DNA from: a virus
IMG/VR virus record: IMGVR_UViG_3300040959_000809
Reading direction: 5' to 3' (one strand)
DNA length: 64,000 nt
Positions within the stretch are counted from its first letter, which is position 1. Every line of letters begins with the position of its first letter. The translations under genes and the position numbers were made by a program. Positions 1,906 to 28,888 of this stretch are shown here, in pieces. The notes below the pieces were generated by a model. The model worked only from the letters and a program-made list of their open reading frames with translations, did not search any database and was not told the DNA's origin.

Positions 1906-2367
1906 ATGAAAAATAAATTAATTGCTTTTGCCTTGGCAGGATCCATATGTACACCTGCATTTGCGGATACCGTTGCCAAGGTTCGTGATGTCTATATTGA
2001 CATTGAGCAGAGTACTCCTTTACAGGAAAGACGTTGTCGAAAAGTTGAGGTGCCTGTGTATGAGAGACAGCAAACAGAAGGTGACGCAGCCGGTGGTGCA
2101 TTGCTAGGTATGATCCTTGGTGGTGTAATTGGCAAAAGTGTTACAGGTGACGACGGTGGTGCCGCAGCAGGAGCAGTAATGGGTGGCCTTATTGGTGCTG
2201 ATAAAGGTTCACAACAAGGTAAAAATGTTATCGTTGGCTATAAGGAAAGCACACATTGTGATTATGTGACTACATGGAAAACTTCTACTGTAACAGAATA
2301 TAGCCACAGTGAGGTTACTTTTAAAACTGATGGAAAGGTATATACTCTGCGATTTTTAAAAGATTAG
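1906..2367 (+). CDS. glycine-zipper 2TM exported/surface protein
   Basis: Signal peptide plus GALLGMILGGVIG...GAAAGAVMGGLIG glycine zipper. Confidence 0.75.
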   Translation: MKNKLIAFALAGSICTPAFADTVAKVRDVYIDIEQSTPLQERRCRKVEVPVYERQQTEGDAAGGALLGMILGGVIGKSVTGDDGGAAAGAVMGGLIGADKGSQQGKNVIVGYKESTHCDYVTTWKTSTVTEYSHSEVTFKTDGKVYTLRFLKD

Positions 2368-2411
2368 CAGGCTTCTAAATAGATTTGTTATTAATAAAGT
2401 GAGGAAAAAAT

Positions 2412-3224: not shown

Positions 3225-3334
3225 ATCTAATAAAAGTTTTATTTTACAGAATGCTATTCTGGAATCATTCTTTTTTGGAAAACATCGTGATTGCATTCAT
3301 GCTGTTAGCAATGATAGGGTTGGCTTATATTTAA
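3221..3334 (+). CDS. small membrane protein (37 aa)
   Basis: Own translation MNLIKVLFYRMLFWNHSFLENIVIAFMLLAMIGLAYI; GGAGG SD; ATGA overlap with ugd stop. Confidence 0.45.
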   Translation: MNLIKVLFYRMLFWNHSFLENIVIAFMLLAMIGLAYI

Positions 3335-3351
3335 GCCAACCCTTCCAATAC

Positions 3352-3684
3352 TTATTTTTTGGCAGAATATGCATTCGCACCAAAGAATACTGATACCAAG
3401 GCAGAAATAGCAACAAAGTATGTTGGCGCAATATCACCCACAATACCTGCGGCTCCGTCTAGTCCTAGATAAGCTGTAAACATAATGGTAGCTGGATAGA
3501 GCAACATTCCAAACAATGCAAACCATGTCATTTTACGCATGGCATCCCTTTGAGCATCTTGATCTTCTAGTTCTCTCCGTTTGAATTCTAGATGCATGTT
3601 CATTTCTTCTTTTGAAATGTGTCCGTCACCGTTTGCGTCAACTCCTTCTACAGCATCCGCATCAATCGTTTTCTTTGCAGCCAT
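3352..3684 (-). CDS. EF-hand-containing two-TM membrane protein
   Basis: DANGDGHISKEE EF-hand loop then two hydrophobic helices; AAGGAGG SD on minus strand. Confidence 0.7.
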   Translation of the reverse strand: MAAKKTIDADAVEGVDANGDGHISKEEMNMHLEFKRRELEDQDAQRDAMRKMTWFALFGMLLYPATIMFTAYLGLDGAAGIVGDIAPTYFVAISALVSVFFGANAYSAKK

Positions 3685-4075: not shown

Positions 4076-4333
4076 ATGTCTATTCAGAAACTTATCGATC
4101 AAACTCACAGCTACTTTGTAGAAGCACAAGGTACAGACCTTGCTGATCTATATAAAGGTGATCTATCTGATTTCCAAGCAGTACAATGGATGATTAATTC
4201 GGATGACATTGATGATGCCGTCGCAAAAATCGATAATATGGATACGGAACCACGTGAGCAGATCATGTTGGCTATTGCGGATGAGTATGGTAATGGATAT
4301 GTAGAAACTGTAATAGGCTATGAGGTAGCATAA
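4076..4333 (+). CDS. hypothetical early protein, paralogue of a module in the 26392 polyprotein
   Basis: DF...M..S...V...D..DTEPRE....GN..V...G pattern shared with ORF 26392. Confidence 0.7.
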   Translation: MSIQKLIDQTHSYFVEAQGTDLADLYKGDLSDFQAVQWMINSDDIDDAVAKIDNMDTEPREQIMLAIADEYGNGYVETVIGYEVA

Positions 4334-4346
4334 ATTAAAATGATTA

Positions 4347-4423
4347 CTCGGTGTAGCGCAGTCTGGTAGCGCATTTGGTTTGGGACCAAAGGGTCGGGAG
4401 TTCGAATCTCTCCACCGAGACCA
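4347..4423 (+). tRNA. tRNA-Pro(UGG)
   Basis: CTCGGTG/CACCGAG acceptor stem, GCGC D-stem, TTTGG-TT(TGG)GA-CCAAA anticodon arm, TTCGAAT T-loop, encoded CCA. Confidence 0.97.
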
Positions 4424-4451: not shown

Positions 4452-4616
4452 ATGACTGAACTTATGACTGATATTGATGTTATTGAATCTGCATTAATCG
4501 CCTTTAACGAAGGTGCCAGCGATGAGAAATATGCGGCACTTTACTCTTTGGAAAAACTTCTGTTGGAAAAGAAGGACATGGTTGCAAAATTTGAAGCAAC
4601 TGCATGTGACTTATAG
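4452..4616 (+). CDS. hypothetical protein (54 aa)
   Basis: Own translation MTELMTDIDVIESALIAFNEGASDEKY...; GGAG SD. Confidence 0.5.
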   Translation: MTELMTDIDVIESALIAFNEGASDEKYAALYSLEKLLLEKKDMVAKFEATACDL

Positions 4617-4669
4617 GTCACATAATGATGTTATATATTGACTTTTGATGTATAACATCATAAATACTA

Positions 4670-4980
4670 TGTAATCGTTGATACGATTCAACGCATGGAC
4701 TGGACCGGGGGGCAATACCCCGCAGCTCCACCATAAACACACTGAGAACGTGCAAGCGTCAGTAAGTCTATAAAGGGTCGCAACCTTGAGCAACAGTGTG
4801 TTTTTGATGGGGCTGAACTAGGATCGACAGGTGTGTAGAGATGAGAGTAGATTACCGTGGTGGCTTACGACATTCGGCCAAACAAACTAAATGCAAACGA
4901 TAATGTTGCACCTTCAGGTTACGCACTAGCGGCATAAGCTGACGGGCTGGTCACTTGCCTCGGAACAGAAAAGTGACACT
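4670..4980 (+). ncRNA. ssrA: two-piece (circularly permuted) tmRNA; outer ends approximate
   Basis: T-arm/acceptor piece ...ccggggggcaataccccgcagctccACCA ends 4733, upstream of the GGGGCTGAA..GGATCGAC 5' end at 4809; tag frame 4893-4937 = ANDNVAPSGYALAA*. Confidence 0.93.
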
Positions 4981-12264: not shown

Positions 12265-13707
12265 ATGCCTCGTAATTTTAGAAACTATTTAAATGAAGCT
12301 TCTATATTAAAACCTGATTATGTAGAAGGGCATAAATTTGCCTGGAACGGTAAAGGTGTAAAGGAATTTGAAACCGCCGGTTATAAGCGCAATAATATAT
12401 TTACTGTAGTTACTGGTTCAGAAGGTGCTGTACTCATTGGAAGCCAAGATGCTGAGAATGAAAAATACCTACAAGGACCTGACGGAAAGGTATGGCACTT
12501 TAAAGGTGGTCTAAGTTTTAAGGCATCTTCTTTTACCCATGTTAAGGAATCTGGTGGGACACCCAGTGGCGCCGAATGGGAAAACCTTATTGTATTTGCC
12601 TATAATAATCTTAAAGGTACTGCTACAGATGAGGAAACAAAGGAAGTTGCTCTCAAATATTGGGAGCGTTATGGTAATATTTCGGATGAAATTGCTAAAA
12701 ACTTTGATACCAATCTTAAGGCAAAGCAGTTAGTACAAACAGGGCGTGGTTTGGGTAATGTCAAACTTGGAAAGTTTTGGAAAGCAGCTGGTGCGACAAA
12801 CAAGACACCAAAAACTGATATCGCATCATCTAATTTTGTGGAAAAGATTTCACTTAAAAAAGGTGGTGGATCTCAGCTCATTTCAGCAGAGAAAAAAGAA
12901 GCACTTGCAATCGTCAATGCTGCCCTATACGAAATGGGTGGTAACGCACCATTTGCCAAAAAGTTAACTAAGGCTATTGAAGATAAAATGACCAGACTTG
13001 TTACAACTGAGGCGGTCACAACCCTACAGAAACGCTCAATGATGGGTGATAAGGACGCTGGTGTGATTGATTATCAGAAAAAGGATAATGATCATAAGGA
13101 ATTGTCTGCAATGCTCAAGGAGGCCATTAGAGGGGCATCCGAAAGCAATAACTTATTCGCTCGACATATTGTACTAGAGGCAGCCACTGGTAATAATAAA
13201 TTTGGTGGTGCCAATTCAAAGGCAGCCGCAAATGTTTTAGGAAAATTTGATATTAGAACATTTGAGGTGGTTGTACAACCCATTTCATCTATTGATGATC
13301 CTATTATTATAGAGTATGCACAAAAGGTACGGCCATATGTTGCATTTAAAAAAGGTTCAGCGGGTTCTGCTGCTTATTCGGCAATGCGGATGGGTTTATC
13401 CGAAGGCTATACATTCCAAAAACTAGTCACCGAAGAACTTTCAAACATTCAAGGTTTCTATCTTACAGAGGATATTCTAAACGAAGGTCCTATGGGTATG
13501 CTTAGACGTGCTGGCACATTTGCCAAACGTGCAGGTGCCGCAGCTAAAAAAGCATTGGATGCAGCAGTTAAAAAGATCATTTTAAAATTAAAAAAGGTAT
13601 TTGCAGCCATTGCCAAAAAAGGTAAAAACATGATGGCAGCCCTTATGAAGTTCTTAGGGGTTGAGGTAAGTACTGCATCAGGAATTCCAGCAGAGGTAGG
13701 TCTATAA
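12265..13707 (+). CDS. putative capsid-packaged PD-(D/E)xK-fold nuclease-like protein
   Basis: Leader MPRNFRNYLNE; AEWE ... PKTD ... ISLKK restriction-fold-like triad. Confidence 0.6.
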   Translation: MPRNFRNYLNEASILKPDYVEGHKFAWNGKGVKEFETAGYKRNNIFTVVTGSEGAVLIGSQDAENEKYLQGPDGKVWHFKGGLSFKASSFTHVKESGGTPSGAEWENLIVFAYNNLKGTATDEETKEVALKYWERYGNISDEIAKNFDTNLKAKQLVQTGRGLGNVKLGKFWKAAGATNKTPKTDIASSNFVEKISLKKGGGSQLISAEKKEALAIVNAALYEMGGNAPFAKKLTKAIEDKMTRLVTTEAVTTLQKRSMMGDKDAGVIDYQKKDNDHKELSAMLKEAIRGASESNNLFARHIVLEAATGNNKFGGANSKAAANVLGKFDIRTFEVVVQPISSIDDPIIIEYAQKVRPYVAFKKGSAGSAAYSAMRMGLSEGYTFQKLVTEELSNIQGFYLTEDILNEGPMGMLRRAGTFAKRAGAAAKKALDAAVKKIILKLKKVFAAIAKKGKNMMAALMKFLGVEVSTASGIPAEVGL

Positions 13708-14960
13708 TGAAAAGATTTAAAAACTATATTGCAGAGGAGGTCCTTACAGAGGATAAGAATTTGCATATGACGCACCTTGAGGATGCGGTCCTTGATGGGG
13801 GTGTGGTTGGTACTCGGAATGTTATTAACTATCTTCGTGCATTGAGAGACATGTTAGGTGGCAACACCAAGGCACCAGTAAATGTCTCTGTAAAATGGGA
13901 TGGGGCACCGGCAATTTTTGCTGGGAAAGATCCATCCGATGGCAAATTCTTTATTGCCAAAAAAGGTGTTTTTAATAAGAATCCCAAAATATATAAAACA
14001 GAAGCTGAAATTGACAATGATATATCAGGTGACCTTGCGTCAAAGTTTAAGGTTGCTTTAAAAGAGTTTAGTAAGCTCGGCATTGAAGGAGTGGTACAGG
14101 GTGATTTCCTATATACGAATGATGATTTACAAACGACGGCTATTGATGGAGAATCGTATATTACTTTCCATCCTAATACGATTGTTTACGCGGTACCAAC
14201 AAAAAGCAAACTTGCAAAAACAATTTCAGGATCCTCGATCGGCGTGGTCTTCCATACAACATACCGAGGAGATTCATTTGAAACAATGTCAGCAAGTTTT
14301 GGAAAGGAGATTGTACCTTCTCTCAAAAAAGTCAAATCGGTCTGGGCGGTAGATGCAGTATTTGAAGATAAGTCGGGCAATGCCACATTTACAGCTGCAG
14401 AGACAAAAGCATTAAATTCTATTCTAACCAAGGTAGGCACACTGTTCAGAACAATTAAAAAGGAAACCCTAAACGGTCTTTCAAAGGCAAATAATGAGGA
14501 ACTTAATACACGCGTAAATGTATATGTAAATCAAAAGGTCCGAGCTGGAGAACGTATTGGAAACCCTAAACAGTTTGTGGCTGGTCTCACAAAATACATC
14601 AATGACTATTACGGCAAAGAGGCAGATAAAAAGAAAACCCAGCGCGGTAAAGACACACAGACCGCAAAGCGTGACTCGGCTCTAGCCTATTTTGCAAACA
14701 ATAATAAAAAAGAAATAGAACGCTTATTTGAAATGTATAACCTATTAGTTGATGCTAAACTTATGGTTATTTCAAAATTAAACCATGTCGATGGTCTACA
14801 AACATTTCTTAAAACCAATAAAGGTTTTGAGGTTACTGGACAGGAAGGCTTTGTCGCCATTGATCATATGGGTAAAAATTCACTTAAACTTGTAGATAGA
14901 CTACAATTTAGTAAGGCGAACTTTAGTACAGAATATATTAAAGGCTGGGAGAAAAAGTAA
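13707..14960 (+). CDS. putative capsid-packaged RNA-ligase-like nucleotidyltransferase
   Basis: Leader MKRFKNYIAE; KWDG (motif I), QGDFL (III), EGFV (IV), KLVD (V). Confidence 0.65.
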   Translation: MKRFKNYIAEEVLTEDKNLHMTHLEDAVLDGGVVGTRNVINYLRALRDMLGGNTKAPVNVSVKWDGAPAIFAGKDPSDGKFFIAKKGVFNKNPKIYKTEAEIDNDISGDLASKFKVALKEFSKLGIEGVVQGDFLYTNDDLQTTAIDGESYITFHPNTIVYAVPTKSKLAKTISGSSIGVVFHTTYRGDSFETMSASFGKEIVPSLKKVKSVWAVDAVFEDKSGNATFTAAETKALNSILTKVGTLFRTIKKETLNGLSKANNEELNTRVNVYVNQKVRAGERIGNPKQFVAGLTKYINDYYGKEADKKKTQRGKDTQTAKRDSALAYFANNNKKEIERLFEMYNLLVDAKLMVISKLNHVDGLQTFLKTNKGFEVTGQEGFVAIDHMGKNSLKLVDRLQFSKANFSTEYIKGWEKK

Positions 14961-16532: not shown

Positions 16533-17246
16533 ATGAAAAATTTAATTTATCAGTATTACAGTAGTCCAGATAAAGATCGAGTGAAAAAAGATAGGCCCGG
16601 TGTATATATAAATGCCGGTAATTATCACGAGTACTCTAAACAATCCATATCAGCATATGCCAAAAAGCATGGTGTTTTATATAAATTTATGGACCACAAA
16701 TTACCTGACGACATCCCTTTATTCTATGGTATTTTTCTACCATTTCTAGAGGGCTGGTGTTGGGATTATGATAATATTTGTTTTATTGATAGTGATATTA
16801 TGGCTACCGTAAATAGTGGAAATGTATTCGACTATGCTGGCAAACAAGGTCTTACATTACATAAAATGGATGCTTCAAAACATCGATTTGATTCCAAGCG
16901 AGCATTTAAATTCTTTAATGAAATTAACGGCTTCTTTAATAGTGGTGTAGTGATCTTTCCAAGATCCGAATATGAAAATTTCATACATTTTGCATCCACA
17001 TTAAAACAAAGAGACTTAAACAGAACCTCTGTCGAGAATAGTCTTGGCGGTTTTGATCAAGGTTTATTAAATACCTGGATAGCAAATCATAAACGCTATA
17101 ACGAATTGCCAAAGCAATATAATTATCATATGGGTAGATATCAAAAGCCCGAAAGATGGTACGATGGCGTGAGCCTAATACACTACCATCGAGAGGACAA
17201 AGCATTAATGGAACCAGAGTTTCAGGATGAGAGAATACTTAAATGA
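16533..17246 (+). CDS. GT-A fold glycosyltransferase (GT8-like)
   Basis: FIDSD DxD motif, FNSGVV, DQGLLN, YNY...IHY. Confidence 0.8.
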   Translation: MKNLIYQYYSSPDKDRVKKDRPGVYINAGNYHEYSKQSISAYAKKHGVLYKFMDHKLPDDIPLFYGIFLPFLEGWCWDYDNICFIDSDIMATVNSGNVFDYAGKQGLTLHKMDASKHRFDSKRAFKFFNEINGFFNSGVVIFPRSEYENFIHFASTLKQRDLNRTSVENSLGGFDQGLLNTWIANHKRYNELPKQYNYHMGRYQKPERWYDGVSLIHYHREDKALMEPEFQDERILK

Positions 17247-17824
17247 TGGGTGATTTAAAATTTACAACTTGTGGGGATTTTATGCAAGAGCAAGATACTT
17301 ATATTGACCAGTATAAAGAATTTTACAATAACGGCGGTTACGAAAATAATGATCCCGTGATGAGAGCAAAAGATGACATTAAAAAGATGCTAAAAAAGTT
17401 CGACTGTAAATCATTATTAGATTATGGATGTGGACATGGACTACAATATTCTCAGCACAAATTAGATCAGTATTGGGATATTAAAAAACTTACGAAATAT
17501 GATCCAGGTGTACAAGAATTTGAAATAAAGCCTACTGGGACATTTGATGCAGTCATTAATACTGATGTTTTAGAGCATATTCCTGAGGATTATGTATATG
17601 ATGTGATTGCAGACATTTTTAGTTATGCTGGTAAGTTTGTATACTTTAGTATTGCCACAGATCTGGCAAAGGCAGTATTACCGAACGGGGAAAACGCTCA
17701 TTGCACATTAAAACCACATTCTGAATGGGTTACCATTATTGATGAAATGCGTGGGGATATTCCTACATTGGTAAAATGTACTGGCCGTAATCGCTCAAAG
17801 ATAGGGAGCACGTTACTGGAATGA
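17243..17824 (+). CDS. class I SAM-dependent methyltransferase
   Basis: LLDYGCGHG, YDP, DVLEHIP, NAH. Confidence 0.85.
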   Translation: MMGDLKFTTCGDFMQEQDTYIDQYKEFYNNGGYENNDPVMRAKDDIKKMLKKFDCKSLLDYGCGHGLQYSQHKLDQYWDIKKLTKYDPGVQEFEIKPTGTFDAVINTDVLEHIPEDYVYDVIADIFSYAGKFVYFSIATDLAKAVLPNGENAHCTLKPHSEWVTIIDEMRGDIPTLVKCTGRNRSKIGSTLLE

Positions 17825-18339
17825 TTAGAAAGGTTATACTCATTGGTAATGGTCCGTCAAGTAAATTTTATTCACAATTAAATCATTTAGATGGCGGAAT
17901 GACAGCTGGGTTTAACCTTACTGAACACAATGTAGATATTATTTTTGTAAGCGATAAAAAAGTTATTAATAAACTTGAAGGCAATCCAAAGGTACATGTA
18001 TTAAAAAAGCCTTTCATGACAAAAAAAGGTGGGCTTAATCTTGCATGGAATACAGGCCATAATGCATATAACTACCTAAGAAAAATGGGTTATACTCATT
18101 TTGAAATGTATGGTTTTGATTTGCTCTTTTCAGACAATTGGAGTTCGTCGACAGATCGAGTATTTAATAAGGATCTGTGGGTTCAACAGGCGATTGAGGT
18201 TGACATTAATAACGAATGGATTCAATACTGGAATGAGATAATTGACACACCTACAATCATTCATGCTCCTGTCGGGGCAAAACTTTATGTAAACTCTAAA
18301 CATGCACAAATAGAACACCATGAAAACTTTAATTATTAG
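17821..18339 (+). CDS. GNGPS-motif protein (sialyltransferase/Maf-like fold)
   Basis: VILIGNGPSS N-terminal motif, MYGFD. Confidence 0.45.
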   Translation: MIRKVILIGNGPSSKFYSQLNHLDGGMTAGFNLTEHNVDIIFVSDKKVINKLEGNPKVHVLKKPFMTKKGGLNLAWNTGHNAYNYLRKMGYTHFEMYGFDLLFSDNWSSSTDRVFNKDLWVQQAIEVDINNEWIQYWNEIIDTPTIIHAPVGAKLYVNSKHAQIEHHENFNY

Positions 18340-18868
18340 TATGCCTAAATCAGGCACATATCTATGTAGTAATTTACTTTTAGAGTTTGGAATCAGACAA
18401 ACCTTACTACATTTAAACACAGGTACCTACCAGCAATATACATCTGATATAAACGATACCAGAAAAAATCCCCAAAAATACACACACCAGTTGAACTTTG
18501 AAAAGTCAATAGAGTTATTTGGTGATAATGAGTTTGCGGTCACCCACGTACCATATAATAAGAAAAGAGCTCAATTGCTGAAGAACACAAAGAAAATACT
18601 TTTGGTGAGAGACGAAAAGGAAATTGTAGAATCATATCAAAGATGGAATGAAAAAACTGATAGACCTATGCCAGCGTTAAATTTAGGTGATATAAAGAGA
18701 TGGGAGCAAGAAACTAATATTTTTAAGCTTTCATTTAATGATATGATAAATAAAAATGTAGAACAGATTGATAGGTTACAGAACTATCTTTTTAATAGTA
18801 TAAAGTTTGATAGTCTGATGTGTATTAAGAATGCAATTGAATTGCCATCAATGACAAAAATGAGGTAA
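18320..18868 (+). CDS. sulfotransferase-like protein
   Basis: SMPKSGTYL PAPS-binding loop, LLVRD. Confidence 0.6.
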   Translation: MKTLIISMPKSGTYLCSNLLLEFGIRQTLLHLNTGTYQQYTSDINDTRKNPQKYTHQLNFEKSIELFGDNEFAVTHVPYNKKRAQLLKNTKKILLVRDEKEIVESYQRWNEKTDRPMPALNLGDIKRWEQETNIFKLSFNDMINKNVEQIDRLQNYLFNSIKFDSLMCIKNAIELPSMTKMR

Positions 18869-18872
18869 TATT

Positions 18873-19544
18873 ATGGTAATATGTGATAAACATAATTTTA
18901 TATTTCTGAGAATTCCGAAGAATGCAAGCTCTAGTCTTGCAGATTTTTTCGTGAGAAACTTTTGTGATCAGAATGATATATGGACAGAGGTAAACGATTG
19001 TGGTATTAGAGACAATAATGTAAGCCCAGAGTTGATTAGAAAATATAGACATCAGTACAGGTTTATCCACCTAATGCTTCAGGAACTAGTGGATAATAAT
19101 GTCGTGACCCCGACTACGTTGGCTGATAAGGAAATCATAAGTGTACTTAGAAACCCACATAGGCGCCAATTATCACTTTATTTCTTTTTAAAGCGAGGAC
19201 AAAGAAAATCGCCTGAGGAATTTAGACATATTTTTAGAGATGGTTATCATGAAACGGATACTTCAAATAGGATTCTCCAAACAGATTATCCTAAATTAAA
19301 AGGTGTTGACAAAGGGACATGGTGGATATATAATAGACTTAATGAACACTTGCAAGAGTTTTGCTCCTCCAAGGGCATGACAGGAAAGTTAGAATTAAAA
19401 CAATATAAAAACGGATATACACCGAAACAACAAGAAATCTTTGAACAGTATTATGACCAAAAAACACTTGATGCTGTTAAAAAATATTATGAAAAGGATT
19501 TTGACAAACTTATGGAATTAGGAACGGGATTGGAACTAGCATGA
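18873..19544 (+). CDS. sulfotransferase family 2 protein
   Basis: FIFLRIPKNASSS, LRNPHRRQLSLY, YYEKDF. Confidence 0.75.
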   Translation: MVICDKHNFIFLRIPKNASSSLADFFVRNFCDQNDIWTEVNDCGIRDNNVSPELIRKYRHQYRFIHLMLQELVDNNVVTPTTLADKEIISVLRNPHRRQLSLYFFLKRGQRKSPEEFRHIFRDGYHETDTSNRILQTDYPKLKGVDKGTWWIYNRLNEHLQEFCSSKGMTGKLELKQYKNGYTPKQQEIFEQYYDQKTLDAVKKYYEKDFDKLMELGTGLELA

Positions 19545-20221
19545 ACGAAATACAAAAAGCTTATATTTTAAGAATTGACACCGATCTATCACGAGAGTAT
19601 GCTCAAATTACCGCTGATTCTTGTGATACAATAGGACTACCTTACGAATATCACGAGGGCTTCTATAACATGGATCCAAATGACGCCTGGAATACCATAG
19701 GCTTGAGTAGACATATCAAGCGTAATAACTGGGTTCCAGCTGCACAACTTTGTACGGCTGGTCATGCAGCTATTTGGAAAAAGATTGCAGACAATAATGA
19801 AACTGCAATTATTCTTGAGCATGATGCTGTAATGCTACACGATCCTCGGAATGTTAAAATTGGTGATAATAGAATTGTATGTCTAGGATACAAGTTAAAG
19901 GATCCAACTAGATATGACCATGAAGCCGCAGGTGGTCCTAGAGGACTTAGACAAATATCTGGCCACGAAGGTGCTCATGCTTATGCCATCTCGGCGGCTA
20001 CCGCTAGGTCGATGCTCAAGGAAATTGAGGAAAATGGTGTAAGGTCAGCGGTTGACAATCTATACTTTCTCATCCAACGTGCAAATTATACAAAGATTCC
20101 TTTGGCTATTATGGACCCAACAGCTGCAATTGGTTGGCTGCGAGACTCTACAATTTGGGAGGAACCAGCAGAAAATAATTATGCCTTTGTAGCATCATTT
20201 GAAAGAAATCTGGTAAATTAA
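19541..20221 (+). CDS. glycosyltransferase family 25-like
   Basis: CTAGHAAIW, ILEHDA, AHAYAIS.. A. Confidence 0.75.
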   Translation: MNEIQKAYILRIDTDLSREYAQITADSCDTIGLPYEYHEGFYNMDPNDAWNTIGLSRHIKRNNWVPAAQLCTAGHAAIWKKIADNNETAIILEHDAVMLHDPRNVKIGDNRIVCLGYKLKDPTRYDHEAAGGPRGLRQISGHEGAHAYAISAATARSMLKEIEENGVRSAVDNLYFLIQRANYTKIPLAIMDPTAAIGWLRDSTIWEEPAENNYAFVASFERNLVN

Positions 20222-20224
20222 ACC

Positions 20225-20884
20225 ATGTCGTTTCTGTTAAAGAATGATGTTATATCATTACACGTACCAAAGACGGGTGGTAAGGCATTTGAGCAGTGGA
20301 TTACATATGGTGCCAGGGTGGTTAAGGAACGAATTGTCAATCAACATTATTCATATTCTGAACTAATAAATGTTCACCCTGAGTATACTGATAACGACTA
20401 TATTATGATTATCAGAAATCCATATGCAAGAATTGTAAGTTGGTACCACCACAGTAGAGATGTGTATACATATAGTATTAATAGACCAGCACAAAAGGAC
20501 AAGAACCATCCACCAGAATCACCTAGGTTTAGCCCATCATTTGAAGATTGGGTACGAAAGGAGGACCTAAGAGATTTTCCAGCATTTACAAAAAACAGAA
20601 CGGCTGGATCTTTTGGAACAATGAAATCATATTTACACCCATCTGGTAGGATGCCAACATATCTATTACACCAGGAAACATTAGCAGATGATCTAAAACC
20701 ATTGAGAGAACTATGGGAAACAGACGCACCATTAACAACTGAAAATAAATCGTCTGTTTCCTTTTCAGGTAATAATAATTGGAAAAATGAGTTTAAATCG
20801 GATTATACAAAGGACTTTATATACGAATACTTCAAGGAAGACTTTGAAACCTTTGGATATGATAGAAAGTTCCCCACCGATTAA
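20225..20884 (+). CDS. sulfotransferase family 2 protein
   Basis: LHVPKTGG, IRNPYARIVSWY, FKEDFETFGY. Confidence 0.8.
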   Translation: MSFLLKNDVISLHVPKTGGKAFEQWITYGARVVKERIVNQHYSYSELINVHPEYTDNDYIMIIRNPYARIVSWYHHSRDVYTYSINRPAQKDKNHPPESPRFSPSFEDWVRKEDLRDFPAFTKNRTAGSFGTMKSYLHPSGRMPTYLLHQETLADDLKPLRELWETDAPLTTENKSSVSFSGNNNWKNEFKSDYTKDFIYEYFKEDFETFGYDRKFPTD

Positions 20885-20890
20885 GTAAGT

Positions 20891-20898
20891 TATAAATA
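20891..20898 (+). promoter_or_regulatory. T4-type late promoter
   Basis: Exact TATAAATA 35 nt before the 20933 start. Confidence 0.8.
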
Positions 20899-20932: not shown

Positions 20933-23242
20933 ATGGCCGATAAAAAGAAGAAAAAGCCCCCAGTCAAAAACTTTAAAGAATTTGACCCGGCCCAATTCAT
21001 TGAAACTGAACCAAAATTAACAGAAGCCGTTAAAAAAGACACGGTCGTTATTAGTTTCGGCAGAATGAATCCTATTACAGTAGGACATGAAAAGCTTGTT
21101 GGTAAGGTTTTAAATGTTGCTCAAAGCCAAAAGGCGGATCCTGCTATTTTTCTTTCTCACACAACTGATCCTAAAAAGAACCCTTTAACATATGAGGAAA
21201 AACTATTTTTTGCTCAAAAGGCCTTTGGCAAAGTAATTAAGAAATCACCTGCAAGGACAATTATTGAGGTGGCAAAACAACTACAGAATATGTATAAGAA
21301 TATGACTGTGGTAGTTGGTTCTGACAGAGTAAAGGAATTTGAAACCTTATTAAATAAATACAATGGAAAAGATTATAAATTTAATACTATTAATGTAGTT
21401 TCAGCTGGTGAAAGAGACCCAGACTCGGAAGGTGTTTCCGGCATGAGTGCATCCAAGATGAGATCGGCTGCTGCCGATGATGACTTTAAAAGTTTTAAAC
21501 AAGGTCTTCCTAAAAAATTACAATCAACCGCAAAAAAGATTTTTGATACAACGAGGCAAGGTATGGCATTAGATGAAGAAACTTTAGAAGAAGCAGTTCT
21601 ATCGAGAGCCGCACGACGGAAAAGAGCTCGACTCCTTAGAAGATATAAAGGTAAAATTGCTCTTGCACGCAAAAAGGCAATGCGTAGACGTGCCACATTA
21701 GACACTCTAAAGAAAAGAGCTCGGAAAACTGCACGTACTATGATCAAGGATAAATTGGCAAAGTCCAAAAGATTTGCTGATCTTGATCCTACTGCAAAAA
21801 TTGCTATTGAAAAGAGACTTGAGAAAATGCCATCGGCGCGTCTTGAAAGATTGGCTCGACGGATTCTCCCTTCAATTAAACGTAAGGAAACGGACCGTAT
21901 GCAACAAAGAAAAAAGAATGAGTCCTTAAATATTGATGAACAATTTGAAATGTTTATGGAAGAAAGAACACCGTCAGGTCGTTTTGGAAAGAATACCCAT
22001 GATATCAAGGTAAAGGTACCAGGTAGAATTAATAAAGCTATTAAAAAGGGAAGCCCGGTTTGGGACCAACGTGAGAACAAACCTCACCAGGAAACCAAGA
22101 AACACCTTTCCGATATAATGAAAAAGCATGGTGTAAAACCATCTAAGGCAAAACATTATCATAATGACATGACAGGTCATTATATGATGGCACATCCAAG
22201 TAATGATCCAGCAAAAGTTCATGCCGCGGCAACTGAATTTGAAAAAACAGTAGGTAAGGCGGTTCGTACAGAAGCCAAAGATGGTGATGGTGTCAATATC
22301 GTAAGGGACCGTGAATTTAAGGGTAAACCTATGAAGAAAGAGCCTGGTACAATAGGCATTAAATTCTCTGATATGAGAAAGTCTAAGTGGGCCAAGGACT
22401 CTGATACCAATCCAAAAAGATCCAAAGCTATGGGTGAAGCCACAGATCTTGAGGAAAAGCTAAAAGCCTCCGATGATATGGGCACTTGGATTAAGGATTT
22501 CCAGGATTCTGATGCACCACAGTTTAAAGACAAATCAAAAGAAAAGCGTAGACAAATGGCTATTGCTGCTAAATTGGATGCCGAGGATGATGTTAAAAAG
22601 GAATCGGTTCAAAAGGGAACTCATATTTCAGACGATCCAAAGGCTATGGCTAGAATAGAAAAATTCTTCAAAGGTTTGAAGCATCAGCCCAAAGGCAAAG
22701 ATATGAAAGATATGTTCGGGTTCATGATGAAACAAATGGGCTATAACCCTAAAACCGGCCTTAAAGAATATAATGAAGATGTAGATCTTGATGAAGCAGC
22801 TCATGATCCTAAACATGTAAAAATGGCTATAGGCATTGCATCTGATAAAAGATATAAAGGTGGTGACATGACTGGTGCAGTCAAGTCCATCGAAAAGATC
22901 AAAAAGGGACTATCTGATCATCCACAAGTTTCTGCTGTACTAAGAAGACAGAACGAAGAAACCAAAACGGAATCGTTGGACGAAATGTGGGGAACATATG
23001 TTTCAAAACGACCTCACATGCTATTGGATAAGAACAATAAGGTTAAATTTGACAAGCGCTTTAAAATGTTTAAAAAGCAAAATGAACTTGAAGAAGAATT
23101 TACACTTAATGAAGAAATGGATTTGGTAAATGATCTTGAGAATTCAGTAAATGAGTTTGTAGAATCTAATGAATTCAAGGAAGCAACTGAACCAAAACTT
23201 TCGTTTAAGGATATCCAAAAAAGAATGGGAAAGGCAAAGTAA
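20933..23242 (+). CDS. putative polyprotein: HxGH nucleotidyltransferase (cytidylyltransferase/NadD-like) plus about 7 small basic modules
   Basis: FGRMNPITVGH and MSASKMR motifs; acidic linkers LDEETLEE, NIDE..FMEE, DLEE, DVDLDE, SLDE. Confidence 0.75.
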   Translation: MADKKKKKPPVKNFKEFDPAQFIETEPKLTEAVKKDTVVISFGRMNPITVGHEKLVGKVLNVAQSQKADPAIFLSHTTDPKKNPLTYEEKLFFAQKAFGKVIKKSPARTIIEVAKQLQNMYKNMTVVVGSDRVKEFETLLNKYNGKDYKFNTINVVSAGERDPDSEGVSGMSASKMRSAAADDDFKSFKQGLPKKLQSTAKKIFDTTRQGMALDEETLEEAVLSRAARRKRARLLRRYKGKIALARKKAMRRRATLDTLKKRARKTARTMIKDKLAKSKRFADLDPTAKIAIEKRLEKMPSARLERLARRILPSIKRKETDRMQQRKKNESLNIDEQFEMFMEERTPSGRFGKNTHDIKVKVPGRINKAIKKGSPVWDQRENKPHQETKKHLSDIMKKHGVKPSKAKHYHNDMTGHYMMAHPSNDPAKVHAAATEFEKTVGKAVRTEAKDGDGVNIVRDREFKGKPMKKEPGTIGIKFSDMRKSKWAKDSDTNPKRSKAMGEATDLEEKLKASDDMGTWIKDFQDSDAPQFKDKSKEKRRQMAIAAKLDAEDDVKKESVQKGTHISDDPKAMARIEKFFKGLKHQPKGKDMKDMFGFMMKQMGYNPKTGLKEYNEDVDLDEAAHDPKHVKMAIGIASDKRYKGGDMTGAVKSIEKIKKGLSDHPQVSAVLRRQNEETKTESLDEMWGTYVSKRPHMLLDKNNKVKFDKRFKMFKKQNELEEEFTLNEEMDLVNDLENSVNEFVESNEFKEATEPKLSFKDIQKRMGKAK

Positions 23243-23736
23243 TGAATAGCTTTAAAGATCATCTTGCAGAAAAGAAAAATGCAGAAGATCCGGATATCGG
23301 AGACCGAAAAGGATCACAACCTTCCGAATATCATAAAGGAATTAAGTCTGTTTCCACCAAGGTCGCTCGTGATCAACACTTTAAAAAGTATGCCAAAAAA
23401 GGTGAAGATGGCGAGGCGGACAGTCAAGCAAATTATAAACCTGCACCAGGTGACGCCACTGCTACAACAAAACCTTCAAAGCACACAAAACGCTATAAGG
23501 CTATGTTTGGAGAAGATGCAACAGAAGGCTTAAAGAAAAAGGCCGAGAAAAGCGGTATGCCTCTTGGAGTACTTAGGCAGGTTTACAACCGTGGTGTTGC
23601 TGCATGGAAATCTGGTCATCGCCCTGGCACTACTCCTCAGCAATGGGGCTTTGCAAGAGTTAATAGCTTTGTGACCAAATCAAAAGGGACTTGGGGCAAG
23701 GCAGATAAGGATTTAGCAGCCAAGGTGGGGGGCTAA
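23242..23736 (+). CDS. CTS-leader protein with HRPG..PQQW..ARVNSF domain (DUF5824-like)
   Basis: Leader MNSFKDHLAE; C-terminal VYNRGVAAWKSGHRPGTTPQQWGFARVNSF. Confidence 0.65.
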   Translation: MNSFKDHLAEKKNAEDPDIGDRKGSQPSEYHKGIKSVSTKVARDQHFKKYAKKGEDGEADSQANYKPAPGDATATTKPSKHTKRYKAMFGEDATEGLKKKAEKSGMPLGVLRQVYNRGVAAWKSGHRPGTTPQQWGFARVNSFVTKSKGTWGKADKDLAAKVGG

Positions 23737-23738
23737 AA

Positions 23739-24371
23739 ATGCAAAACTTTAAATCGTTTATTTCTGAAGCCGGTGGTGCTGGTGAGTGGGGAGCAAAGAA
23801 ACTCACAAAGAAATATAAAAAAGACACCCCAGGCGAATCCTCTGATTTAAATGAAAGCGCATTAAAAGCACTTAGGGTTGCGACCAAAGCTCATGCAGGA
23901 CAAACACGTAAAAGTGGTGGCAAGTATATTGAGCACCCAAAAGAGGTTGCTCGATTTGTAAAGCAATTTAAAAAGTCAAATAATCTTTCGGCGTTAGTAC
24001 AGGCAGCCTATCTACACGATACTATTGAAGATACTGATACAACATATGATGATTTGGTTAAACAGTTTGGTGCTCTTGTAGCTGATATGGTTCAGGAATT
24101 AACAACTGATAAAGCTGCCTCTGATGCTATTGGTAAAGGTGAATACATCGCTGGTAAGATGGCTAAAATGTCAAGTTGGTCATTAGTTATTAAACTTGCG
24201 GATAGATTAGCAAATGTACAAGACATTGATACTCGGCCTGCAGATTTCCAAAAGAAATATGCTGCACAGACTGCACTTGCCATTAAACGTCTCCGTAGTG
24301 ATAGGTTCTTGAGCAAAACACATAATAAAATCATCTCGGCAATTGAGAAAAAGATTAAAGAGTATGTTTAA
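23739..24371 (+). CDS. CTS-leader HD hydrolase, SpoT/Mesh1 type
   Basis: Leader MQNFKSFISE; AHAGQTRKSG..YIEHP, AAYLHDTIEDT, V.ELT.DK, IKLADRLAN. Confidence 0.88.
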   Translation: MQNFKSFISEAGGAGEWGAKKLTKKYKKDTPGESSDLNESALKALRVATKAHAGQTRKSGGKYIEHPKEVARFVKQFKKSNNLSALVQAAYLHDTIEDTDTTYDDLVKQFGALVADMVQELTTDKAASDAIGKGEYIAGKMAKMSSWSLVIKLADRLANVQDIDTRPADFQKKYAAQTALAIKRLRSDRFLSKTHNKIISAIEKKIKEYV

Positions 24372-24747
24372 GTTTAAAAAATATGTATCTGAAGGCCTCA
24401 AGCTTAAACTCATTAGAGGTAAAGGCGAAGACGTCTTAAAAATAAAAGATAGTAAAGAGAAGTCTTGGGTTGAAGTGCGTGGAAAACCTAACTTCGAAAC
24501 TAAGTTTGATCCAAAAGATCCTCTACATAAAGCAATTGCAGCTTTAAGAAAATCTGTTAATGTGTCTGAGCTTGTGAATGGAGAGCCTGTAGGCATTAAT
24601 CCAAACCATCCTGACGGTAAAAAAGCTCTGGCAGCAATAAAGAAGTTGATGAATGAAACTAACGGCTTTCAACCAGCAATGATGTTACATGAGCCAACCA
24701 AAAAGAAAATATTGTCTAAACAAAAAAAGAATAGAGAAGAAAAATGA
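24364..24747 (+). CDS. CTS-leader hypothetical protein
   Basis: Start moved to MFKFKKYVSE at 24364, overlapping the previous stop. Confidence 0.7.
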   Translation: MFKFKKYVSEGLKLKLIRGKGEDVLKIKDSKEKSWVEVRGKPNFETKFDPKDPLHKAIAALRKSVNVSELVNGEPVGINPNHPDGKKALAAIKKLMNETNGFQPAMMLHEPTKKKILSKQKKNREEK

Positions 24748-25439
24748 AAAGATTTAAGCATTATATTTCAGAAGGTAATGCTAAAGGTGGTTACCATTAT
24801 GAAGATCAGGTTAATAGTAATCTGAAAAAGCATGGAATGCAGAAAAAGGACCAAAAGAGTGCTGGAGCATCAAAGGATGCACCTGATGGAACAATTCGGT
24901 CCAAGGATGGTAAACATCACAATCTTGAAATTAAACAGAATAAAAATGCTATGTATGGACAAATTGGTATGCACCACGATGGCAAAACATGGAAGGTAAA
25001 GGATAAATCCAAAAAGGATTATCCTGAAACTGCAAAACATATTGAAAAACATGTAGTACCTCATATGAATAAACATATGGGAAAGCCATCCGGTGATTAT
25101 CACAAGGATAAAGAAGTACACGGTAACCATTATATCCCACATAAGGGCACTCAGCCCATCCGTGATCATTATGCAAAAGATAGAAACACACATTATATTC
25201 AGATTGGCAAATCCGGTCTCCACCATATGTCAAAGGATCATGGTAAACTTGGTACTCATGAATTAAACGGAGATACTCGTTTCCGTGTACGTGTTAAATA
25301 CCATGGAACAAATAAAAAGACCAACAAGGTAAGTTATAGCCATACTGTTACGATGGAATTAAAGAACCATAAAGCATCACATATAGATCTGGACCATCAT
25401 TCAGAACATTTAGGTAAAATACACGGCAAACATGAATAG
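24744..25439 (+). CDS. CTS-leader PD-(D/E)xK nuclease-like protein, His/Lys-rich
   Basis: Leader MKRFKHYISE; YE ... APDG ... LEIK triad. Confidence 0.65.
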   Translation: MKRFKHYISEGNAKGGYHYEDQVNSNLKKHGMQKKDQKSAGASKDAPDGTIRSKDGKHHNLEIKQNKNAMYGQIGMHHDGKTWKVKDKSKKDYPETAKHIEKHVVPHMNKHMGKPSGDYHKDKEVHGNHYIPHKGTQPIRDHYAKDRNTHYIQIGKSGLHHMSKDHGKLGTHELNGDTRFRVRVKYHGTNKKTNKVSYSHTVTMELKNHKASHIDLDHHSEHLGKIHGKHE

Positions 25440-25716
25440 TTTTAAAACATATATTCTTGAAGCAAAGACACCCAAATGGAAAAAGGCAGGGCCGGATGGT
25501 GAGCAGGAAATTACCTTTCCTACAGGTAGAAGGTTTAAAATAGAAAAACAACTTGATCAAAATGAGCGACATCAACGTGGCGAATATAAGGTCATGGAAT
25601 GGGATTCCAAAACTCGGGATTGGGAATGGCATGAAACATATAGTCCAAAATGGTATGCTAAAGAGAAGGTAATGGAACTAGGCAAGTATGACCAAAAGGG
25701 AAAAAAGGTAGGATGA
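25432..25716 (+). CDS. CTS-leader hypothetical protein
   Basis: Leader MNSFKTYILE. Confidence 0.7.
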   Translation: MNSFKTYILEAKTPKWKKAGPDGEQEITFPTGRRFKIEKQLDQNERHQRGEYKVMEWDSKTRDWEWHETYSPKWYAKEKVMELGKYDQKGKKVG

Positions 25717-26087
25717 AAAAGTTTAAACAACATTTACATGAATCTAACTTTGGTCTATATGAAGGAACCACAGTACCACTTGATCAGCCGATGATTGAAA
25801 TTGATGAGGAACAGGAACCAGAACTTAATTCACCAAAACGTGGCGGCAAGAAAAAGTACATTGTATATGTCCGGGATCCTAATACAAAGAATATAAAAAA
25901 GATCCAATTCGGAGACGACACGGGATTGTCTGCAAAGATTAATGACCCAGGTGCTCGGAAGAATTTTGCAGCCAGACATAATTGTGCTGATAAAACAGAT
26001 AAAACCAAGGCTGGCTATTGGGCATGTAGATTACCAAAATATGCCAAACAATTAGGTCTTAAAGGCGGAGGTGATTTCTTTTGGTAG
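25713..26087 (+). CDS. CTS-leader basic protein
   Basis: Leader MKKFKQHLHE; KNFAARHNC...KAGYWAC domain. Confidence 0.7.
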   Translation: MKKFKQHLHESNFGLYEGTTVPLDQPMIEIDEEQEPELNSPKRGGKKKYIVYVRDPNTKNIKKIQFGDDTGLSAKINDPGARKNFAARHNCADKTDKTKAGYWACRLPKYAKQLGLKGGGDFFW

Positions 26088-26344: not shown

Positions 26345-26352
26345 TATAAATA
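26345..26352 (+). promoter_or_regulatory. T4-type late promoter
   Basis: Exact TATAAATA 40 nt before the 26392 start. Confidence 0.8.
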
Positions 26353-26391
26353 TCAAAAATAACCACATTAAATTTTTAAGGATCTAATAAA

Positions 26392-28170
26392 ATGGCTTTT
26401 ACAGACAGAATTAAACAGTTAATGTCGTCTCATCTCGAGGCGGAACTAATGGAAGGTCTGAAACACGACCGTTATATGCGTGCTCACGGTAAAAAAGCTA
26501 AAGGCACCGCAACATGGATGTTTACCACCAAAAAAGATGGTGAAGTAAACTACGATAACGATAAGGAAGTTTTCCAATCCGGTCCATCTATGAAACTTGC
26601 AGATGCTGCCAAAAAAGCAATGGATGCTCTTAAATCAAAAACAATTTATGTAATGGAAGCTAAATTAGATCCAGTTGGCAAAGAAGATGATGATGTGGAC
26701 AATGACGGTGATGTAGATAAATCCGATAAGTATCTTAAAAAGCGCCGGGCCGCAATCAAAAAGGCTATTAATACAAAACCAGCAATGAAAGAGGCAGCTA
26801 AAAAGCAAAAAGCAAAACTACTGCCCGTCAAAGGTTCTGTAGATGATGCAAATGATGTGGCACAAAAGGCAACTGGCGAATCTGTTAATGAAGCGGCAAC
26901 ACCTCAAATGATGAAAGCCGCAAAAGAACTTGAAATGTACGCAAAGAAACACGGTGGGATTGATAAAACAGACTTTATGAAAGCCTCAAAGATGTTGGCA
27001 TCCGGTAAAGCCGGAACAAACCTTGTTAAATTTGTAGACGGACTTGACACAGATCCTCGTGAAAAGGTTATTACAGTTATGGGAACCCACATGGGTAATA
27101 AAACTGTTGGAAAAATGTTTGGTGTTAACATCCGTGAAGAAGTAGAATTAGACGAAGATCGTAGAACGGAACTTAGTCATCAATCAATGATGTTTACTCA
27201 TGCAATGAAACAAGCTGAATTTAAAAAGAAAGATCCGAGACTCGCAAAACAGCATGATATGGCTGGCAAGTTGCATGCTAAAGCGGCAGATATGCACGCT
27301 GATAACCATCCAGATGCAAAAAAGCATTCAGATAAAGCAAATAAAGCATCAAAGCTATTAGGCGAAGAAGTAGAACTTGATGAAACTTTATCACCATCTG
27401 AAAAGAAACTTGTCAATCAAATGTATGATAAGAAAGGTAACCTGACACCACTTGGTAAAAAGGTTATGAACCACGGTAAAAAGCCTGGTGATAACATCCG
27501 TGAGGAAACTGAACAGCTTGATGAATCAACTCAAATGATGGAAAATCTAGCTGATGCGATTGATAATACAGATTTGGCTAAACTCACAGTAGAAGAGTTA
27601 TCTGAAATCGAAGAAGGTATTATTAAGGCGCTAGGTGTTGCCGCCAAAAAGACTGTAGGTGGTGTCGCTAAGGGTGTAGGTGCTGTCGCTAAGGGTGTTG
27701 GTAAGGCAGCTAAATCCGCAGTCATTAATAAACAAGGTAATATCCGTGGTACACAAGCGGCTAAAACTGACGCACAGACTAACAAGGCTAATAAAATTGC
27801 TGATAAATTGCAACGAAATAAAGATGCGGCCGATAGATTAAAAGCGGCTCAGGACAGAATTAAATCTCTTTCCTCTAAGCCTAAGAAACCATTAGCGGCA
27901 AGTTATAATGAGGACCTAAACGAAATCGGAAGTAACTTTGAAACAAAACCGAATGAAAAGAAACTTGCTGACCTAGGCCGTAAAATGATGGATATGGGTC
28001 AAAAGGAAAAGAATGATACTCTTTCAAATGCATATGCCAGACTTGGTGACGCGTTGACAAGATATGGTACCACATTTGGTGCCAGAAATATAAAAGATTT
28101 GGAAAAGAAAACTGGCATGAAACAAGCCATTATTATGGATCTTATGAAAAGAGCTGCGAAGCATAAGTAA
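26392..28170 (+). CDS. putative polyprotein of about 9 modules separated by prohead-protease-type linkers
   Basis: Linkers ELME, YVME, SVNE, NIREEVELDE, GEEVELDE, NIREETEQLDE, EIEE, DLNE. Confidence 0.75.
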   Translation: MAFTDRIKQLMSSHLEAELMEGLKHDRYMRAHGKKAKGTATWMFTTKKDGEVNYDNDKEVFQSGPSMKLADAAKKAMDALKSKTIYVMEAKLDPVGKEDDDVDNDGDVDKSDKYLKKRRAAIKKAINTKPAMKEAAKKQKAKLLPVKGSVDDANDVAQKATGESVNEAATPQMMKAAKELEMYAKKHGGIDKTDFMKASKMLASGKAGTNLVKFVDGLDTDPREKVITVMGTHMGNKTVGKMFGVNIREEVELDEDRRTELSHQSMMFTHAMKQAEFKKKDPRLAKQHDMAGKLHAKAADMHADNHPDAKKHSDKANKASKLLGEEVELDETLSPSEKKLVNQMYDKKGNLTPLGKKVMNHGKKPGDNIREETEQLDESTQMMENLADAIDNTDLAKLTVEELSEIEEGIIKALGVAAKKTVGGVAKGVGAVAKGVGKAAKSAVINKQGNIRGTQAAKTDAQTNKANKIADKLQRNKDAADRLKAAQDRIKSLSSKPKKPLAASYNEDLNEIGSNFETKPNEKKLADLGRKMMDMGQKEKNDTLSNAYARLGDALTRYGTTFGARNIKDLEKKTGMKQAIIMDLMKRAAKHK

Positions 28171-28513: not shown

Positions 28514-28888
28514 ATGAAATTGACAGAATCAACTTTCGTAATGTTCGCTATGAAGTATTATGATAATCCTCAATGCTCAGATATTTCAGAGTTTGAGGAG
28601 GACCTAAAAAGATTTCAATATTTAAGAAAGCTTTTCGGGCGTTATCGTCAAGACGGAGATTTGAAAGAAAGGTTGATTATTAATCATTTGATAGTTATAT
28701 ACAACGTATTTGGTCCCTCCGCAACCAATATGTTGTTCATGAAGCTACACGAATACCATGAGTATTTATTGCCATTCGTCTCGTATTTAAATTTTATGCC
28801 AACGGTAGTATTGTACGAGGATACTGTTCTCCACAAGGACAGTATTGTTGGTGACGAATCGATTGTTGAAACACTTAAGGAACTCTAA
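28514..28888 (+). CDS. conserved T4-like hypothetical
   Basis: FAMKYYDNPQC, EDLKRFQYL..LF.RY, ERLIINH. Confidence 0.7.
   Translation: MKLTESTFVMFAMKYYDNPQCSDISEFEEDLKRFQYLRKLFGRYRQDGDLKERLIINHLIVIYNVFGPSATNMLFMKLHEYHEYLLPFVSYLNFMPTVVLYEDTVLHKDSIVGDESIVETLKEL

Follow-up and report, generated by a model that had tools for sequence, protein, structure and literature searches.

A stretch of viral DNA 64,000 nucleotides in length (IMG/VR virus record IMGVR_UViG_3300040959_000809; the whole stretch is called the window here) carries at positions 26392–28170 of its plus strand an open reading frame (ORF) that encodes polyprotein 2, a 65-kDa protein of 592 amino acids with a net charge of +22. We consider it likely that polyprotein 2 is the precursor of a set of capsid-internal proteins in a marine myovirus of the T4 superfamily, which would be packaged into the head, cleaved there, and ejected at infection. 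The evidence described below supports the view that the protein is made up of small modules that are separable and evolve independently, and the borders between these look like sites for a gp21-type prohead protease. The ORF is not an assembly artefact, because the identical protein (100% identity over 592 amino acids) occurs on at least eight (8–9) metagenome contigs from several samples.

The original prediction, made from the sequence of the window, described this ORF as a polyprotein of nine modules, and this description proved correct. Cutting at the nine [LIVM]-x-E motifs named there yields a 21-amino acid leader and modules A to I; the coordinates given for the linkers were exact (NIREEVELDE at 27127–27156, GEEVELDE at 27361–27384, and NIREETEQLDE at 27493–27525), and all nine borders end in a hydrophobic-x-E site as had been claimed (LME21, VME89, MKE134, VNE167, LDE255, LDE331, LDE378, IEE408, and LNE511). 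The modules have no similarity to one another apart from the common linkers. Eight of the nine are basic, with net charges of +1 to +14; the claim that the modules are basic fails for module G, which is acidic.

All modules are encoded on the plus strand. The leader (amino acids 1–21; 26392–26454) ends in L-M-E and is a variant of the capsid-targeting sequence (CTS) of T4-like phages. Module A (amino acids 22–89; 26455–26658) has a net charge of +5 and contains the motif HDRYM. In module B (amino acids 90–134; 26659–26793), a basic helix comes after an acidic D-x-D-N-D-G-D loop, and a weak match to the EF-hand, under the Pfam cut-off, is seen for this module in one relative. Module C (amino acids 135–167; 26794–26892) ends in V-N-E. 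Module D (amino acids 168–255; 26893–27156) has a five-helix bundle as its core (168–248), followed by an I-R-E/L-D-E double site around the spacer EVELDE. Double sites also follow the His/Lys-rich, helical module E (amino acids 256–331; 27157–27384; L-G-E/L-D-E) and module F (amino acids 332–378; 27385–27525; I-R-E/L-D-E), the latter of which contains the motif EKKLVNQMYDKKGNL. The acidic module G (amino acids 379–408; 27526–27615) has four closely spaced sites and would probably be degraded as a spacer, being cut to small pieces on digestion. Module H (amino acids 409–511; 27616–27924) is the most basic, with a net charge of +14, and begins with three Lys/Gly/Ala/Val-rich repeats of 7 amino acids (21 nucleotides; KGVGAVA type; 27625–27690), followed by a long helix. 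Module I (amino acids 512–592; 27925–28167; net charge +8) is a conserved C-terminal helical domain (pLDDT ~82).

Polyprotein 2 contains 15 [LIVM]-x-E sites, as compared with 8.2 ± 2.5 in shuffled sequences (P ~0.01). All 15 are located at module borders or in the acidic segment, with none in the cores of modules A, B, C, D, E, F, H, and I. The T4 protease gp21 cuts after L/I-x-E (PMC9026906). Three linkers have double sites spaced 6–7 residues apart and would on complete digestion lose the acidic peptides EVELDE, EVELDE, and ETEQLDE. Eight basic fragments of 33–103 amino acids (3.6–11 kDa; net charge +1 to +14) are predicted to be left by full digestion.

The same motif marks module edges in relatives. 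An [LIVM]-x-E motif immediately precedes module D in 27 of 27 unique contexts, module E in 12 of 12, and module F in 36 of 38, against a background of 2.4% per position. At these edges P1 is always Glu and P3 is aliphatic, while P2 varies (D, N, S, E, I, H, Q, and K), as do all positions further upstream. The site is contributed variously by an EEVELDE-type linker, by a quite different linker, or by the leader itself; in some relatives the cleavage site of the CTS leader replaces the linker before modules A and F. Module A directly follows a CTS leader in P0109, P0112, P0128, and P0132, and P0167 is a stand-alone gene of 50 amino acids composed of a 10-residue CTS leader and module F. Within the cores of modules A, B, D, E, and F of dereplicated homologues, the motif is depleted about five-fold (15 observed versus 79 expected from composition), as is evident also from the counts for module A (2 versus 8.5) and module B (0 versus 10.8).

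These observations bear on an alternative explanation, in which the protein is packaged but left uncut, or loses its leader only, and acts as one polyvalent protein whose several domains are joined by flexible acidic linkers. In that case, the hydrophobic-x-Glu at module edges would be structural, serving as a helix cap or part of a linker. Packaged polyvalent proteins with 2–15 unrelated domains are indeed on record (PMC5512222), and acidic linkers are common in multi-domain proteins. We nevertheless consider this explanation unlikely. The invariance of the P1 Glu and the aliphatic P3 alongside a variable P2 and a variable linker argues against it, as do the occurrence of the CTS cleavage site in place of the linker before the same modules, the double sites that flank each spacer, and the avoidance of the motif by module cores. 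The domains typical of polyvalent proteins are also absent, in that a Pfam scan of the polyprotein found none of their characteristic repertoire (MPTase peptidase, ART, methylase, helicase, LPD domains, etc.).

The structure of polyprotein 2 was modeled with AlphaFold2 from the orthologue alignment. The full-length model has a pTM of 0.23 and a mean pLDDT of 53, with low confidence in the linkers, and is confident only in modules D (168–248) and I (521–590). Modeled alone, module D forms a five-helix bundle (pLDDT 88, pTM 0.75). The original prediction took the modules to be separate rather than parts of a single fold across the linkers; nothing in these models suggests such a fold, and the modules appear to be autonomous.

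The start of polyprotein 2 is assigned to 26392 rather than to Met20, because a Shine-Dalgarno site (AAGGA, 26377–26381) is located 10 nucleotides before the ATG and because residues 1–21 are conserved in the orthologue alignment, with M1, F3, I7, L10, L19, and E21 being invariant. The public gene call (P0001, 573 amino acids) begins at Met20 and is 19 codons too short (26392–26451 of the window), and the leader is consequently absent from database entries. In orthologues the leader reads M-A-F-K-D-R-I-K-E (pattern M-A-F-x-D-R-I-K-[E/Q]), with a first site at E9 and a second, L-M-E, at residue 21. In the CTS of T4, targeting is the role of residues 4 and 7 and processing that of residues 8 and 10, with Asp at position 10 blocking the latter, and this signal is thought to allow T4-like phages to package varied proteins (PMC9026906).

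A TATAAATA box is located 39 nucleotides upstream of the start codon (26345–26352, plus strand). The box is kept upstream of the orthologues in L066, L067, L068, and L062, and also in the more distant L002, where the best segment of the encoded protein reaches only 73% identity. Eleven such boxes occur in the window, ten of them on the coding strand. We take the box to be a match to the T4 late-promoter consensus, and by this match the polyprotein gene appears to have a late-promoter-like element and may be transcribed late.

The gene is located ~16 kb downstream of gp41, among genes that bear CTS-type leaders, and does not adjoin the protease gene. The leader pattern M-x-x-F-K-x-[FYH]-[LIV]-x-E occurs in eight ORFs of the window, versus 0.18 expected by chance. 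Six of these are consecutive plus-strand genes just upstream of polyprotein 2 (23242–26087; starts at 23242, 23739, 24364, 24744, 25432, and 25713). Two further ones are found on the plus strand at 12265–13707 (480 amino acids, MPRNFRNYLNE) and 13707–14960 (417 amino acids, MKRFKNYIAE), the second of which matches phrog_455. The gene at 23739–24371 (plus strand) has a SpoT/RelA-type HD hydrolase domain (Pfam HD_4, E 2.8e-16) behind the leader MQNFKSFISE, and its product is a candidate capsid-packaged alarmone hydrolase.

A companion gene, polyprotein 1 (20933–23242, plus strand; 769 amino acids), is likewise preceded by a TATAAATA box (20891–20898) and combines an HxGH cytidylyltransferase-like domain with a tail of modules. 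Its enzyme domain is homologous to gp154 of cyanophage S-CREM2 (L073:1109–1969; 33% identity, E 2e-26), which begins with MKNFSSFLTE, a leader of the same type as those in the window. The product of S-CREM2 ORF154, a cytidylyltransferase, was identified by mass spectrometry in CsCl-purified virions along with those of its neighbors ORF155, 156, and 160, and cytidyltransferases are frequent in cyanophage virion proteomes according to the same authors (PMC10665884). S-CREM2 gp160 (L073:4843–5736) is a basic protein of 297 amino acids with several [LIVM]-x-E sites, and both it and gp154 resemble the set in the window. In cyanophage S-RIM50, the same enzyme stands behind MKKFSAFLTE and is followed by a protein of 570 amino acids (L072:4944–6656), annotated 'cytidyltransferase', which has a Lys/Ala/Gly-rich stretch like that of module H. 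By these data, the leader-bearing set includes at least one member that is virion-associated in a relative, which says nothing direct about polyprotein 2. As a separate observation, S-CREM2 gp160 adjoins a DUF7207-like gene, so called from the resemblance of gp159 to the window gene at 28514–28888.

It is against this context that a second alternative is to be weighed, namely that polyprotein 2 is made late, remains in the cytoplasm, and never enters the head. Such a protein would be disordered or repetitive and helical, with linker repeats that arose by duplication and a coincidental likeness to the CTS and to gp21 sites. The mean pLDDT of only 53 and the long low-confidence stretches agree with this, as do the lack of family matches and the absence of the exact 10-residue leader from polyprotein 2. 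Arguing against it are the location of the gene within a block of leader-bearing genes, the presence of homologous modules next to gp21 in relatives (see below), the occurrence in virions of a homologue of the companion polyprotein's enzyme, and the statistics of the border motif, which oppose coincidence. We regard a cytoplasmic protein as very improbable.

The original prediction that module order and content vary among homologues was borne out. Among 240 retrieved relatives, the orders D-F (42 hits), F-D (13), F-D-E, D-E-F, E-D, A-B, and B-A were found, along with many single modules, which excludes an invariant order; module B, with 91 of the 240 hits, is among the three most widespread. 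The module families together have more than 1,100 database hits. Ten close orthologues share a frame of leader-A-B-C and G-H-I, between which they gain or lack entire modules, in every case at linkers. Module E is absent from orthologues P0002–P0009. Orthologue P0002, at 470 amino acids, is shorter than the 592-amino acid protein by exactly 122 amino acids (366 nucleotides) and is without modules E and F. The deletion in P0002 is joined within the repeat NIREE, which is present in the window as two DNA copies (27109–27141 and 27475–27507, plus strand; 82% identity over 33 nucleotides) spaced 366 nucleotides apart. In the sequences compared, P0002 provides a direct instance of modules lost through recombination of one linker repeat with another. 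A second pair of linker DNA sequences, 21 nucleotides in length, occurs at 27136–27156 and 27364–27384 (plus strand; 86% identity).

Exchange extends to polyprotein 1. This protein is ~99% identical to its counterpart in the related phage G001 (contig C88; L001:1066–3003, minus strand) over residues 1–447 and 614–769, and between these stretches its 166-amino acid cassette is replaced in G001 by a 42-amino acid cassette that is module F. The comparisons show, at the level of sequence, that linkers are the points at which modules come, go, and change place, in at least one case through recombination between copies of the linker DNA repeat, and that modules move within polyprotein 2, between it and polyprotein 1, and to or from single leader-bearing genes. 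A module had also been claimed to be paralogous to the gene at 4076 (4076–4333, plus strand), which encodes a stand-alone protein of 85 amino acids without a leader. The claim is supported, although weakly: module D and this protein are 28% identical over 57 amino acids (pairwise E 2e-8) and also align at a DT[DE]PRE motif.

It is conceivable, and we put this forward tentatively, that the whole constitutes a recombination-driven cassette magazine. Each linker would serve at the protein level as a double gp21 site with a masking acidic spacer and at the DNA level as an exchange repeat. Cassettes would be deleted, inserted, and exchanged among the two polyprotein genes, free-standing leader-bearing genes, and different phages, in a manner that is integron-like but read out by a protease, and phages could thereby quickly re-assort injected proteins for host takeover or anti-defence.

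Relatives that carry the modules also carry gp21, which belongs to Pfam family PF03420 (Peptidase_S77) and has at least 7,998 homologues among database hits. The genes gp21-gp22-gp23 occur in canonical order in G002 (a complete genome, with a gp41 73% identical) and G003 (91% complete; gp41 75% identical), and G005, whose gp41 is 50% identical, also has gp21 and gp23; G001, available as fragments only, showed neither PF03420 nor PF07068. The gp21 of G002 and G003 begins with MKLITE, which recalls the N-terminal site noted for T4 gp21. Directly upstream of gp21-gp22-gp23, both G002 and G003 encode a basic modular protein of ~400 amino acids with linker sites. The one in G002 (L060: ~2060–3300, minus strand) begins with a CTS leader; the one in G003 (L061: ~2260–3437, minus strand), whose 5' end is cut by the edge of the locus, holds module D behind an L-D-E site. 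This protein would represent a further polyprotein type, the third, located where T4 has gp67/gp68.

This location favors a third alternative, in which polyprotein 2 is an accessory prohead core or scaffold protein like T4 gp22, gp67, and gp68, chopped by gp21 into fragments that are expelled before DNA packaging, such that the modules are not delivered. In its favor, gp21-type sites are numerous and the chain is mostly helical; a comparable modular protein also occupies the gp67/gp68 position directly upstream of gp21-gp22 in both loci (L060 and L061), and the T4 core proteins are cut into several fragments that exit the head (PMC9026906). However, polyprotein 2 has a net charge of +22 and 2.5 sites per 100 amino acids, located at linkers only, whereas the gp22-like proteins of the relatives have net charges of −49 to −58 and 7.4–10 sites per 100 amino acids. 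The depletion of sites in folded cores likewise argues against a scaffold, as does the difference in module content between near-identical phages, which is unexpected for a size-determining scaffold, and the occurrence of the same modules as single leader-bearing genes, like T4 internal proteins. A scaffolding role therefore appears improbable.

For a precursor of capsid-internal proteins, the course of events would be as follows. The polyprotein gene would be transcribed late, and the N-terminal CTS-variant leader would direct the precursor to the core of the prohead. Next, gp21, the prohead protease of T4 type (Peptidase_S77), would cut after Glu at each [LIVM]-x-E linker, with double sites releasing EVELDE and similar acidic spacers. 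These spacers may hold the precursor nearer to neutral charge until it is inside the prohead. The eight basic proteins of 3.6–11 kDa freed in this way would remain with the packaged DNA, like IPI*, IPII*, and IPIII* of T4, and exit the head at infection. The modules might serve to neutralise DNA charge or to interfere with the host or its defences: a possible association with DNA fits their net positive charge and the weak helix-hairpin-helix resemblance of module I, and possible roles in host interaction fit the rapid turnover of cassettes.

Several points weigh against this explanation. The leader of polyprotein 2 is one residue shorter than the canonical 10-residue pattern, making it a variant rather than a copy, and its first site, present in orthologues, is gone in this copy (E9 is Q). 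The gene for gp21 was not found in the 64-kb window, and a gp21 of the phage's own would lie outside it. The [LIVM]-x-E motif is short, and the depletion and border counts come from related sequences, so that they do not represent independent events; homologues of module I, moreover, are without depletion (15 observed versus 18.5 expected). Overall [LIVM]-x-E density was considered as a mark of packaged proteins and rejected, since leader-bearing proteins of the window, at 1.47 times expectation, are not separated from its other proteins, at 1.23 times; only the position of sites is informative. The protein as a whole matches no Pfam family at E ≤ 0.01, a tblastn search with the whole protein and with modules D and A+B found no homologue among 50,697 cultured phage records, and in sequence and fold searches no module matched a known anti-defence, enzymatic, or functional family. 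The original prediction of a modular magazine of injected effectors stands in part. The separable modules with their variable content and order, the conserved gp21-type sites, the late-promoter-like box, the cluster of leader-bearing genes, and the T4-like lineage with gp21 in close relatives speak for the modular magazine; the variant leader and the loss of its first site do not. Injection is predicted, and an effector role for the modules is a supposition of the original prediction.

Further searches were similarly sparse in matches. In PHROGs the polyprotein matches unnamed families only, over residues 33–186, and a sequence search of the PDB with the polyprotein gave no match (best E 0.56). 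Foldseek searches with the full polyprotein model found nothing in the PDB or BFVD at E ≤ 0.001, and a Foldseek search with the model of module D had no match. In the ESM Atlas, module D resembles only unnamed viral clusters, and module I weakly resembles HHH_8 helix-hairpin-helix models (TM ~0.5), which is a lead rather than a finding. In a VIA-align comparison, module D scored highest (Z 5.3) against generic helical bundles, which was not informative. Among the relatives, Pfam identified only DUF5824, DUF3008, DUF6321, the cytidylyltransferase-like domain, and one Zeta-toxin/AAA kinase; a search of the open literature found no paper on DUF5824, DUF3008, DUF6321, or 'cytitidyltransferase'.

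The remainder of the window identifies the lineage, by its gene content, as T4-like. It encodes homologues of core T4 replication and recombination proteins (the gp59 loader, gp32, UvsX, gp41, and gp61), along with nrdAB and PhoH. A permuted, two-piece tmRNA of alphaproteobacterial type is encoded on the plus strand at 4607–4980 and 4347–4423 and adjoins tRNA-Pro(tgg); it matches Rfam RF01849 (103.6 bits) and RF04321 (111.6 bits), and ARAGORN gives its tag as ANDNVAPSGYALAA. The type of tmRNA is a hint that the host may be an alphaproteobacterium. A block of glycosyl-, methyl-, and sulfotransferase-like genes (16533–20884, plus strand), with Pfam tags taken from the orthologous locus L066, separates the two groups of leader-bearing genes.

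The original prediction supposed that such a system had not been described in T4-like phages, a claim that survives a limited search of the open literature. This search found no description of a multi-cargo polyprotein read out by the prohead protease, of linker-mediated cassette exchange in such a polyprotein, or of CTS-type leaders in marine T4-like phages, and on the CTS in cyanophages it found nothing beyond a review. Because its parts are already known, namely the CTS and internal proteins of T4, gp21 cleavage at L/I-x-E, Glu-specific head processing in giant phages, and polyvalent proteins (PMC5512222), polyprotein 2 is not a new kind of system. Few head-carried, DNA-delivered phage proteins are understood, examples being T4 IPI, which acts against a restriction enzyme in E. 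coli CT596, and Alt (PMC9026906). The locus suggests that a widespread marine T4-like lineage packages many more head-internal proteins, by a principle that would be economical in having one leader, one promoter, and a protease-readable separator between cargoes. If correct, this would provide a sequence rule for genome-wide prediction of capsid cargo (by leader or by linker-bounded modules), a catalogue of small candidate early-acting proteins to set against host defences, and a clear case in a double-stranded DNA phage of polyprotein processing for cargo rather than for structural maturation. Single CTS fusions are already used in biotechnology to load T4-type capsids, and polyprotein 2 would be a natural template for multi-cargo loading.

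Polyprotein 2 shares features with four known systems. Like gp22, gp67, and gp68 of T4, it would enter the prohead core and be cut at multiple L/I-x-E sites, and a related modular protein stands at the gp67/gp68 position in relatives. The T4 core proteins, however, are acidic, dense in sites, and conserved, whereas polyprotein 2 is basic, has sites at linkers only, and is variable. In the giant phages phiKZ, 201phi2-1, and SPN3US, a gp21 homologue similarly cleaves many head-internal proteins behind the Glu of a three-residue motif; the sites are redundant, and the cut proteins travel with the DNA (PMC9026906; PMC10052503). The motif in these phages is S/A-x-E, and long propeptides are removed from single mature proteins, as opposed to the release of a series of different proteins. 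No similarity in sequence or fold was found between the polyprotein and giant-phage head proteins (Foldseek against the PDB and BFVD).

For the polyvalent proteins of phages and conjugative elements, which have 2–15 unrelated domains, packaging into the head and delivery alongside the DNA have been proposed (Iyer, Burroughs, Anand, de Souza and Aravind 2017, PMC5512222). Polyprotein 2 resembles these in having several unrelated domains per polypeptide, nine modules in this case, and shuffled architectures, which vary among its 240 relatives. Polyvalent proteins use large enzymatic or anti-restriction domains (peptidases, ARTs, etc.) and, where processing has been proposed, their own MPTase peptidase (PMC5512222). 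In contrast, the modules of polyprotein 2 are 30–100 amino acids in length and match no family, and their separation would be carried out by the head-maturation protease at conserved linker sites.

The likeness to the T4 internal proteins (IPI, IPII, IPIII, and Alt) consists in late expression, which is judged here from the box match, in the L/I-x-E cleavage logic, in small basic predicted products within the size range of IPI* to IPII*, and in content that is hypervariable between related phages. The leaders of the neighboring genes also match the T4 CTS in the aromatic residues at positions 4 and 7, the aliphatic residue at 8, and Glu at 10 (PMC9026906). In the T4 genome record, IPII and IPIII begin with MKTYQEFIAE and IPI begins with MKTFKEF, and their mature parts are without a further [LIVM]-x-E. 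Polyprotein 2 differs from the T4 internal proteins in its shorter, variant leader and in having no sequence similarity to any of them, and its processing and ejection are predictions. Whereas in T4 each leader carries a single cargo, polyprotein 2 would carry many cargoes in one reading frame, set apart by internal sites and excisable acidic spacers.

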